Shown here piece by piece: positions 48,705-51,700 of a stretch of 64,000 nucleotides of DNA. Origin of the DNA: Candidatus Aenigmatarchaeota archaeon (GTDB lineage: Archaea; Aenigmatarchaeota; Aenigmatarchaeia; QMZP01; QMZT01); assembly GCA_043808015.1 (NCBI GenBank), contig JAZDFI010000008.1:13271-77270 (forward strand), written 5' to 3'. The position numbers were made by a program, and so were the translations under genes. Under the pieces are notes generated by a model that was given only the letters and a program-made list of their open reading frames with translations, searched no databases and was not told the DNA's origin. Numbering within the stretch: position 1 is the first letter of the stretch; every line of letters begins with the position of its first letter.

Positions 48705-51700
48705 CTACGTTGTGTGGTGGATGGTTTGGTTCGAGGGCCGAAGAAGGACGTGGCAAGCTGCGATATGCCGGGGGTAGACGCAAGCAGTCTTTGAACTCCG
48801 GATCTCTCAATGAGACTTCTTAACTTCGGTTGTTGGCCTTCGGGTCATCGGTGACGCCCTGAATTGAAACATCTTAGTAGGGGCAGGAAAAGAGAACAAT
48901 AGTTATTCCCTTAGTAGAGGCGATTGAAAAGGGAAGAGGACAAACCGAATCTTCTGGTGTAAGCCAGGAGAGATGTGGGGTTCGGACCTGTGCTCATCCT
49001 AACTTCTAAGTCCGAAGTGATCTGGAAAGATCCACGGCAAAGGGTGATAGTCCCGTAGGAGGACAGAAGAAGGTTGATAGCGGGTATCCAGAGTACCAAT
49101 GGTCGAAGATCCATTGGGAATACGGGAGCCAGTAACTCCTAATCCTAAATACACCTCGAGTCCGATAGCGCACAAGTACGGTGACGGAAAAATGAAAAGT
49201 ATCCTTAATCGGAGATTAAAAGAGCCTGAAACCATGCAACTATAGGTAGACATTGCTTCTGCTTTGCAGGAGTTTTGTCGCCCGTGCGGAAACACGCGTC
49301 AAGGAGTTTATTTTTGTGGCGAGGGTAATTCAAGTACCCATAGCGAAAGCGAGAACTGCGCAGCGGCTTCGTGCCGTCAGGCAGTCAGGTTTGAAAGAGC
49401 CTACAGTCACAAGGATAAGACCTGAAGCTAGTCGATCTAGCCCTTGGTAGGGTGAAGTCTGGCGAAAGCCAGATGGAGGCCCGGTAGAGATGCTGAGATT
49501 CAAATCGCTCACGTAACCTGGGGCTAGGAGTGAAATGCTAATCGAGATTAGCGATAGCTGGTTCCTCTCGAAATATGCCTCAGCATAGCCTGGTCGGAGA
49601 TGGATGGCGGGGTATAGATACTGATTGGGCAACCAAGGACCGAAAGGTCCAGTTGTCCTGTCAAACTCGGAATCTACCATCATCGCAGAAGACCGGAGTG
49701 GGAGCGCCGGGGTAAGCTCGGTGTTCGAAAGGGCGAGAACCCAGCCTAAAATTAAGGTCCCTAAATTCAAGCTAAGTGATAAAAAGCGTCTTCAACCTTA
49801 TACAATAGGGAAGTTGGCTCAGAAGCAGCCACCTTTTAAAGAGTGCGTAATAGCTCACCTATCTAGGTTGTGGGCCTTGAAAATGGACGGGACTAAGCTT
49901 GGTACCGATATTTTAGATTCCTAAAAGGAATATGGTAGAGAGGTGTCCTGCTAGGGCAGAAGTTCTCTCGTAAGAGGGAATGGACCTTGCAGGAATAAGA
50001 ATCTTGATGATAGTAGCAGCAATAGTGAAGTGAGACACTTCACCACCTAAAGGGCAAGGGTTCCTCAGCAACGTTCGTCGACTGAGGGTTAGTCGGTCCT
50101 AAGGCAAGCCCCAATTGGAACTTGCCGAAAGGGAAGCAGGTTAATATTCCTGCACCATGAGAATACGAGTGGCGACACAAGTTCATTTCCTGACGCTTCT
50201 GGATAAATCGATCATTTCGGTGATTAACCGGTTAAACCTGTGGAGTACCGTAATGGTGAGAAACAGGCCAAGCCGGCAATAGCTGACGTATGTCAGTTCG
50301 GTTGACTTCAGGAGCCCGTGAAAAGGGAAATGGAATGGATTTTTCATGTCCGTACCAAGAACCGTTACTGGTGCCCCTCGCTGAGAAGGCGAAGGTGTAA
50401 TAGGAAAATTCAGGTCAAGGAATTCGGCAAAATCGCCCTGTACCTTTGGTATAAGGGGTGCCTAATCTTCTGGCTCAGCCAGAACGATTAGGTCTCAGTA
50501 ACTAGTGGGTTGCGACTGTTTAACAAAAACGTAGGGGGCTGCTAGGTGGAAACGCTTTGTATAGCTCTTGAGGCCTGCCCAGTGCCGGTGTGTTAAACTG
50601 GCTAAAACCAGCCAAGCCCCGGTAAACGGCGGCGGTAACTCTGACCGTCTTAAGGTAGCGTAATCCCTTGTCGATTAATTGTCGACCTGCATGAATGGCT
50701 TAACGACATCCCAACTGTCTTGATCTGAAGCCTAGCGAACTTAGTTGTCCAGCGAATATCCTGGAGTCCTTCAGCGGGACGAGAAGACCCCATAGAGCTT
50801 TACTGCAGTCTGTTGTTGTAGTATGCTGATGGTCGCATAGCGTAAGTGGGAGCATCGCACTCAAGTCTTCGGGTTTGAGGAAGGCGTCAATGTAACACCA
50901 CTCCACCGTCAACATATTGCTTACCTTTAGGGGGACAGCAATTGATGGGCAGTTTGGCTGGGGCGGTACGCCTCTGATAAAGGATCAGAGGCGCCCTATG
51001 GTCGGCTCATTCCGGTCAGAAATCGGAAGCAGAGTGTAAGGGCAAAAGCCGGCCTGATAGGATTCTGCAAGGCAAAGAATCCTAACGCGAAAGCGTGGCC
51101 TAGCGATCCGCTGTGTCTCTATTAGCTGAGAGCCAGCTCTGTCAGAAAAGTTACCTTGGGGGTAATGGAGTCGTGGCGCGTGAGAGTCCATAACTCATTT
51201 CTCGTTCTCGATAAGTCTGAACAAAAAACGATACATACCTTGTGTATGTTAAAGCTTTTTGTCAGGACAAGCAGAAAGCAGAATATATAATCATCTGTTG
51301 GCTGTTGAGTCACACGTATCTATGCCCATTCATTGGGCTGCAAAGGTGCGTGTGATGATGAAAAATCGAGAAGTGAGAGGTCAAATCGACCGCGCTCGTT
51401 GCTTCTCCGCCGTCGGCTCGGCTCTTCCTGGACGTGCAGCAGCGTCCAAGGGTGGAGGTGTTCACTCATTAAAGAGTCACGCTAGCTGGGTTAAATACGG
51501 TGCGAGCCAGTATGGTCTATATCTGCTGAAGGTGTTGGTTACCTGAGGGTAGAATGCAATTAGTACGAAAGGAACACTGCGTTGTGGCCTCTGGTGTATC
51601 GGTTGTGTCTGCATTGCCGAGTAGCTACGCCGCTGAGGATAAAGGCTGAAAGCATCTAAGCCTGAAGCCTCTCCCGAAAATAGGTAACCGTTCATCAAAC

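Follow-up and report, generated by a model that had tools for sequence, protein, structure and literature searches.

A single ribosomal RNA (rRNA) operon is located on the 64,000-nucleotide stretch of Candidatus Aenigmatarchaeota DNA analysed here (the window; positions 13,271 to 77,270 of contig JAZDFI010000008.1, assembly GCA_043808015.1), and the 23S rRNA gene of this operon departs from the near-universal sequence of the peptidyl transferase centre (PTC). On the same contig, 21 kb from the operon, lies the gene for the archaeal release factor aRF1, in which the GGQ motif reads GGW. The genome harbouring the window (G000) is a member of the Aenigmatarchaeota (DPANN) with a size of 934 kb in 39 contigs and an estimated completeness of 90.7%. 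The relevant features, with window coordinates, are as follows:

48693..51828, + strand: 23S (large subunit, LSU) rRNA gene, full length (RF02540, 2477.5 bits at a threshold of 50, model positions 1-2987)
51158..51168, + strand: PTC strand 2444-2454, consensus GGGGAUAACaG, here GGGGGUAAUGG (Infernal, posterior '*')
51401..51416, + strand: PTC strand 2494-2509, consensus gcuACcUCGAUGUCgG, here GCUUCUCCGCCGUCGG (Infernal, posterior '*')
51479 and 51483, + strand: A2572 and G2576U of the second shell, consensus CgUGAgCuGGG, here CGCUAGCUGGG
50780, + strand: A2055C, consensus A, a bacteria-like state
50961..50963, + strand: P loop G2251-G2253, canonical in the alignment
51459..51463, + strand: A loop U2552-C2556 (UGUUC), canonical in the alignment throughout the order of the window
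51192..51384, + strand: rRNA intron of 193 nucleotides (nt) in the apical loop of helix 89 (H89); RNA contigs join 51191 to 51385
24328..25554, + strand: aRF1 gene with GGW in place of GGQ (Pfam eRF1_1/2/3 domains PF03463, PF03464 and PF03465, precomputed, P0001)
46401..47839, + strand: 16S rRNA gene of the same operon, upstream of the 23S gene (RF01959, 1344 bits)

Substitutions in the peptidyl transferase centre

A search of the entire genome with RF02540 identified one LSU gene, and no second rRNA operon was found. The same covariance model was re-run locally with Infernal on window positions 51050-51620. In the strand at 51158-51168 the substitutions A2448G (51162), C2452U (51166) and A2453G (51167) were detected, while A2450 and A2451 were kept. 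The strand at 51401-51416 contained A2497U (51404), C2499U (51406), U2500C (51407), A2503C (51410) and U2504C (51411), and G2505 and U2506 were kept. A preliminary description made from the letters of this DNA had called these eight positions by eye, and the Infernal alignment returned every one of them; the variants stayed in place and no insertion or deletion restored the canonical bases. The P loop, the A loop, U2584/U2585 and A2602 had been described as canonical and were so in the alignment, as were G2447, C2501, G2553 and the whole of G2583-U2585. The listing of A2497U as a departure had to be given up, this being an ordinary state in archaea with U2497 in most Asgard sequences. Four features were absent from the preliminary description, namely the 193-nt intron, G2576U, A2055C and A2572. 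The last of these is bacteria-like, the archaeal consensus at this position being U.

The numbering was fixed on a bacterial 23S sequence (L088), the top match from an E. coli collection; this 2.75-kb record is labelled as a plasmid, is not K-12-like and was used for numbering only. The landmarks G2251-3, A2451, U2552/G2553, G2576, U2585 and A2602 were found at the expected places in this reference.

Expression of the gene and splicing of the helix 89 intron

The two PTC motifs are separated by ~240 nt instead of ~50 because the 193-nt intron sits in the H89 loop, where Infernal displayed a 195-nt insertion in the apical loop. The stretch was recovered in runs from freshwater and other sediment metagenomes and metatranscriptomes. 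In a DNA run, a single 31-kb contig spanned positions 51000-51700 and retained the insertion. Three metatranscriptomes from three studies each contained a contig joining 51191 to 51385 with flanks that were 99-100% identical to the window, and one of these spliced contigs had 1 difference in 409 nt. Since the RNA contigs skip the 193 nt while the DNA contig keeps them, the insertion is a spliced rRNA intron. The joined RNA sequence, GAGAGUCCAU followed directly by AUCGACC, is a canonical H89 loop. The variants were carried by the DNA and the RNA contigs alike: no alternative letters were present at the variant PTC positions in the contigs of the one DNA and three RNA runs, and no C-to-U or A-to-G editing back to the canonical bases was seen in the RNA contigs at the variant sites. 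The read support consists of assembled contigs, which show presence and the splice joint and not abundance or expression level.

The intron displays a bulge-helix-bulge arrangement. Read by hand, each splice site falls within a bulge of 3 nt, AU^A at 51190-92 and AA^A at 51383-85. A central helix of 4 base pairs (51186-89 with 51379-82), which contains one U-U mismatch, separates the two bulges, and an intron stem of 11 base pairs (51194-204 with 51367-77) follows beyond them. The hand-read cut positions agree with the joint 51191/51385 in the RNA. The whole insert folds stably (z = -5.7), and an automatic co-fold of the splice-site flanks recovered no bulge-helix-bulge. As in the known archaeal rRNA introns of this type, two 3-nt bulges are found four base pairs apart with symmetric cuts within them, a conserved functional helix is the insertion site and the insert is gone from the mature RNA. 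The intron, a putative substrate of the splicing endonuclease, differs from the known ones by the U-U mismatch in the central helix and by its location in the H89 loop at a site and with a length that vary among close relatives; the insert at this site ranges from 0 to ~195 nt.

In the LSU loci of some relatives (for example L019, L020, L021, L027, L098, L122, L123 and L126) introns were found inside the PTC strands themselves, following UAAU (2452), GCUGGG (2583) and GUCGUGA (~2598), and some of these encode LAGLIDADG-type homing endonucleases. A tRNA match of 109 nt at window positions 54658-54766 (+ strand) is also probably an intron-containing gene.

Distribution of the altered centre

The order to which the window belongs consists of families f1-f6 and is represented by 26 LSU loci; the family codes f1-f40 used here are anonymous, and relationships at the level of orders rest on partial trees. 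All LSU loci of this order carry UAAUGG together with UCUCCGCC, with the sole exception of a locus from a mixed 1.9-Mb bin, which also holds a typical copy. Five substitutions, C2452U, A2453G, U2500C, A2503C and U2504C, have become fixed in this order. No variation was seen at 2499-2506 in the 26 loci from six families, although the helices on either side do vary, a contrast that indicates purifying selection on the altered PTC. Position 2497 varies once in the order, from U to C in G029. G2448 is restricted to the genus of the window and always occurs with U2497.

Outside the order, UAAUGG was found in many other families. The exact 20-mer covering 2492-2511 was present in 57 stretches among ~186,000 species-representative genomes (GTDB), nearly all labelled Candidatus Aenigmatarchaeota, the remainder being a few mis-binned or chance matches. 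A survey of the 2497-2504 strand in 371 genomes of the phylum revealed a graded series. At one end, A2503 is kept in f39 (ACGUCGAU or UCGUCGAU), and A2503C is the only change in f7-f14 and part of f21 (ACCUCGCU). Further intermediates are UCAUCGCU and UCAUCGUU, followed by UCUCCGCU in part of f7, f15 and f18, and UCUCCGCC is confined to the order of the window. A control set of 69 Asgard genomes was nearly uniform (A/U-CCUCGAU).

Some further variants were noticed in these surveys. Among the Asgard controls (G449, G520:C72 and G396:C138), one genome had CCUCGAC (U2504C) and two small contigs were of the xCUCCGCU type. In the Aenigmatarchaeota, A-loop variants occur as U2555C in f16, f18 and f21, U2554C in f15 and U2552G with C2556U in f9 and f13, and tunnel-entrance variants as A2059U in f21 and the bacteria-like A2058 in f39 (loci L097, L101, L102, L104-L113 and L119-L121). 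Several LSU contigs of the Aenigmatarchaeota type are filed under other phyla, one of them in a Freyarchaeota genome.

Covariation of the substituted positions

For the analysis of covariation, 65 Aenigmatarchaeota loci were aligned to the window with nhmmer over ~1,200 columns of domains IV-VI, a procedure in which introns drop out. In the E. coli PTC, pseudouridine 2504 pairs with C2452 and A2453 with U2500 (bioRxiv 10.1101/2024.11.12.623245). The states at 2453:2500 were A-U in 4 loci, G-U in 13, G-C in 24, C-U in 3 and U-U in 1, and C2500 was always accompanied by G2453 (24/24). At 2452/2504 the states were C/U (n = 8), U/U (n = 18) and U/C (n = 19), the U/C state occurring only in the order of the window. 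A third series involves 2055: 35 loci of other families combine A2055 with U2504, and 25 of the 26 loci of the order combine C or U2055 with C2504. A2055C is specific to the order and accompanies C2504. Position 2503 was C in 58 loci, A in 4 and U in 3, while U2576 and A2572 were found in 65/65 loci.

The coordination of changes that was suspected in the preliminary description is thereby real, but the pair it named is not the constrained one. It had been proposed that an A2453-C2499 wobble becomes an isosteric G-U; the 2453:2499 states are G-U, G-G, G-A, A-C and C-A, which is no isosteric series, and it is 2453:2500 that covaries. The proposed swap of the 2452/2504 contact from C/U to U/C is borne out by the series C/U, U/U, U/C. 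The pair 2057:2611 does covary as had been suggested, although as ordinary Watson-Crick variation (A-U, C-G and G-C).

The release factor and the glutamine methyltransferase

The aRF1 of the window reads PGKTEAGGWSQARYARVR at the tip of its middle domain, with the codons GGT GGC TGG at 24865-24873; the TGG at 24871-24873 confirms the GGW already seen in the preliminary description. The NIKS stop-codon motif is visible in the translation. No other gene with an eRF1_2 domain was found in the genome, and a bacterial RF-1 domain was likewise not detected. The aRF1 gene and the rRNA operon also share one contig in G003, G012, G015 and G022.

GGW was present in 119 of the 120 closest homologues in a collection of 5.8 billion proteins. 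When the motif was read per genome, GGQ was found in families f7-f16, f25-f32, f34, f35 and f37-f40, GGW in f1-f4, f6, most of f5, f18, f22 and f33, GGM in f19 and f21 and GGF in f17. Within the order of the window, GGQ occurs in two genera of f5 (G038 and G050), in the context GGQSAARF. A horizontal origin of these two GGQ factors was rejected, all three of their domains being nearest to GGW factors of the same order. A shift of the catalytic glutamine to GGWSQ was also considered and rejected, as many GGW factors read GGWSAN.

In a HMMER search against representatives at 50% identity, the best 150 matches had Q (n = 94), W (n = 11), M (n = 7), F (n = 3), E (n = 2) or S (n = 1) in this position. 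Distant aRF1 representatives with 34-40% identity (P0239, P0195, P0218, P0244 and P0210) had GGW, GGE and GGS, and the loss of glutamine may extend beyond the phylum or into paralogues. In many aRF1 genes of the phylum an intein follows directly after GG[Q/W/M/F], with Cys at +1, giving forms of 700-900 amino acids (for example L153/L154 in G076, P0087 and P0121-P0135).

The GGQ glutamine of aRF1 is reported to be methylated in model archaea by a complex with a eukaryote-like partner (PMC6144793). Matches to the archaeal HemK/Mtq2-type glutamine methyltransferase (TIGR00537) at E <= 1e-20 were recorded in 141 genomes whose completeness was 85% or higher. In the GGQ families 55 of the 59 sampled genomes had a match, whereas the non-Q families had almost none, as listed below. 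Family f20 (0/1) was placed in neither group, its aRF1 motif being unreadable.

GGQ families: f7 7/11; f8 3/3; f9 1/1; f11 4/4; f12, f13, f14 and f15 1/1 each; f27 12/12; f30 3/3; f31 3/3; f32 2/2; f35 1/1; f37 2/2; f39 6/6; f40 7/7
Non-Q families: f6 0/6; f17 0/1; f19 0/1; f21 0/27; f22 0/7; f33 0/1; f18 1/10 (at the cut-off); f1 1/11 and f3 1/2 (both below the cut-off)

Within the non-Q families only two genomes passed the cut-off: G038, which has GGQ (132.7 bits), and, right at the limit, G107 from f18 (87.5 bits). G038 was the sole match over the cut-off in f5, and the next-best f5 genomes were G050 and G029. All three fall within the two f5 genera that retain GGQ, the motif having been read in G038 and G050. 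No TIGR00537 match over the cut-off was found in the genome of the window. The glutamine and the methyltransferase thus largely go together down to the level of genera. That nearly all sampled genomes without the glutamine also have no methyltransferase match is in keeping with aRF1 being the principal substrate of this enzyme in these archaea.

Relation of the centre to the loss of glutamine

All non-Q genomes with a readable LSU have U2452/G2453, a pyrimidine in position 2503 and U2576. The link between altered PTC and GGW drawn in the preliminary description consequently stands as an association, but a one-to-one covariation fails, as the same PTC occurs with GGQ and with GGW. The state of the PTC hence does not dictate GGW, and judged from these sequences the remodelled centre looks permissive rather than determining for the loss of glutamine. 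A search for a single rRNA column separating Q from non-Q genomes identified none in the PTC or its vicinity; a variable helix of domain IV discriminated best.

A partial LSU tree made with the PTC columns removed placed f18 and f21 beside the GGQ families f7-f13 (support 98). A single non-Q clade was rejected on this tree by the approximately unbiased (AU) test (AU p = 7e-5), and at least three changes of state are needed. A basal position of G038 relative to the GGW members of the order is compatible with this tree (p = 0.15).

Interpretation and alternatives

The most probable explanation, to which we assign a probability of about 0.78, is that the gene is the functional, expressed and sole 23S of this organism, that the second shell of its PTC was rebuilt by compensated substitutions and that the altered centre is permissive for the loss of GGQ. 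The changes from A-U to G-C at 2453:2500 and from C/U to U/C at 2452/2504 would rebuild the shell behind the catalytic bases, and A2503C, G2576U, A2055C and A2572 would have been added to it. Nothing has changed in the P loop, in the A loop or at the first-shell positions for catalysis and tRNA binding (A2451, G2505, U2506, G2583-U2585 and A2602). The new state would have been built stepwise during the radiation of the phylum, with intermediates surviving in other families. Once the intron has been spliced from H89, the mature rRNA retains the variant bases.

The side chain of the GGQ glutamine is accommodated in a pocket formed by A2451, C2452, U2506 and A76 of the P-site tRNA. The backbone amide of this residue contributes to catalysis, and most substitutions of the side chain lower release in vitro without abolishing it. 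Aromatic moieties of A-site substrates and of drugs are bound in the A2451/C2452 cleft, which is hydrophobic. The altered part of the A-site cleft (A2451 and 2452) would be the very pocket that normally takes the glutamine of the release factor. The cleft would differ from the canonical one through the new pairing of U2452 with C2504 and through a repositioning of 2504-2505 by G2576U and the pyrimidine at 2055. This remodelled cleft may then take up a hydrophobic side chain, with the hydrolytic water still placed by the GG backbone. On the background of the altered PTC, several lineages would have swapped the glutamine for W, M or F, with the methyltransferase gone, and remodelling of the PTC would have been the permissive step. 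In the genomes of the phylum that were read, no residue other than W, M or F stands in place of the glutamine, which suggests an aRF1 whose hydrophobic side chain is anchored in the cleft and whose two glycines keep the backbone geometry. The wider proposition, that two features of translation regarded as universal have a natural exception here in which W, M or F docks in the cleft, the methyltransferase is dispensable and the replacement was repeated or reversed, is given even odds.

Several observations weigh against this explanation. The full PTC of the order type is found with GGQ in G038, and UCUCCGCU is found with GGQ in f7 (G076 and G078) and with GGW in f18. No PTC column among the ~1,200 aligned separates Q from non-Q genomes. 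The backbone of the aRF1 tree is weak, and a gene tree alone cannot count origins. In the domain-IV helix 50535-50536/50567-50568, GG/CC is found in the order, f18 and f21 and CU/AG in the GGQ families; a helix state common to all non-Q lineages conflicts with the partial LSU tree and hints at shared ancestry. All genomes used are metagenome-assembled genomes (MAGs), and two of them of ~2 Mb each, G036 (L005) and G067 (L090), carry a second, canonical LSU and are probably mixed bins. The ribosome and its GGW factor are known here from sequence alone, and modifications of the rRNA are invisible in the data used.

Natural drug resistance is a possible but rather unlikely alternative to a permissive remodelling, one in which the changes block PTC-targeting small molecules of hosts or neighbours and the change in aRF1 is secondary or unrelated. 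Nearly all of the altered positions are known to determine resistance, and the catalytic bases of the first shell have escaped change, as would be expected of resistance mutations. G2576U, U2504C, U2500C, changes of A2453 and C2452U confer resistance to linezolid, chloramphenicol or anisomycin (bioRxiv 10.1101/2024.11.12.623245; linezolid papers). However, no inhibitor, producer or host is known, and the changes are of ancient origin and form a graded series throughout a phylum from varied sediments. Resistance would also explain the selection and not the function of the site, and in that sense it is compatible with a compensated and permissive centre. A selective origin in resistance to inhibitors of the A-site cleft is plausible, and a resistance origin was proposed by Nissley et al. 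for the clades they described (bioRxiv 10.1101/2024.11.12.623245).

Drift with compensation is a little more doubtful still. Mildly deleterious PTC mutations would have been fixed in small, fast-evolving populations of symbionts and compensated afterwards, and neither they nor GGW would have an adaptive meaning. This is in line with DPANN genomes of 0.5-1.4 Mb, with other odd states in the phylum (U2555C, U2554C and U2552G in the A loop, A2059U, and various bases at 2499 and at 2503) and with G-U and U/U intermediates that resemble a compensatory path. Yet the states are frozen once reached, as seen from the identity of 2499-2506 in 26 loci of six families and from the near-constancy of GGW in the closest homologues (119/120). 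The restriction to W, M and F in the genomes of the phylum that were read points to selection on the side chain, although GGE and GGS occur in distant representatives.

An artefact or a dead gene, be it a pseudogene, mis-assembly, mis-binning or editing to the canonical sequence, would be conceivable from MAGs and from the two related bins with a second canonical LSU of another organism, but is practically dismissed by the full-length match of a single-copy gene, by the same sequence in dozens of independent assemblies, by the 31-kb DNA contig and the RNA contigs of three studies that match at 99-100% with no editing at the sites and a correctly spliced intron, and by a contig shared with aRF1 and other ordinary genes of archaea. 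The claim of the preliminary description that the PTC departs from the near-universal sequence is borne out.

Comparison with known systems

Divergent PTCs were reported in 2024 for the Thermoprotei and Methanomethylicia together with a structure from Pyrobaculum calidifontis, and archaea were found to tolerate such changes partly through a short uL3 loop (bioRxiv 10.1101/2024.11.12.623245). The PTC described here resembles those of Nissley et al. in having several clade-fixed substitutions at the conserved positions 2447-2453 and 2500-2504, and presumably also in the preservation of first-shell geometry. U2500C, U2504C and a changed 2453 are shared, and the same positions are sites of resistance. 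The differences are that the present organisms are DPANN Aenigmatarchaeota of sediments and not hyperthermophiles, that G2453 is found in place of their C2453 along with C2452U, A2503C, G2576U and A2055C, that the lineage of the window is without the G2447A / C2501A base-triple rearrangement, and that graded intermediates are visible in the Aenigmatarchaeota. Aenigmatarchaeota, DPANN, A2503, G2576, GGQ and release factors are all absent from the text of Nissley et al. The new elements of the PTC are thus the other phylum, the different and larger set of positions and the preserved intermediates.

PTC resistance mutations from the laboratory and the clinic (G2576U, C2452U, U2504C, U2500C, A2453 and A2503) affect the same nucleotides, often by the same base changes. 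In bacteria or haloarchaea such mutations occur singly and usually at a cost, whereas here at least six are combined, compensated and fixed throughout an order or phylum.

Like the canonical aRF1/eRF1 methylated by Mtq2-Trm112, the release factor is encoded by one gene per genome and has three domains, NIKS and a pair of glycines at the tip of its M domain; it differs by the W (M or F in sister families) and in that an Mtq2-like methyltransferase was not found. GGQ has been described as universally conserved (PMC6144793, PMC7708063). Among ~8.4 million papers that were searched, no relevant one linked the phylum or DPANN to PTC, GGQ or GGW, and as far as this literature was searched the joint loss of the GGQ glutamine and the methyltransferase is undescribed.

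Meaning for the lineage and for translation

Textbooks present the PTC and the GGQ loop as invariant, and both are used in arguments on the chemistry of peptide release and on the limits of ribosome evolvability. Screens and probes based on rRNA that assume these PTC motifs will miss this lineage. The lineage suggests which combinations of changes are tolerable at nucleotides in contact with antibiotics, and the preserved intermediates of the rebuilt PTC reveal which pairs must change together. The occurrence of GGQ, GGW, GGM and GGF factors on near-identical ribosomes is a natural experiment on the role of the glutamine.

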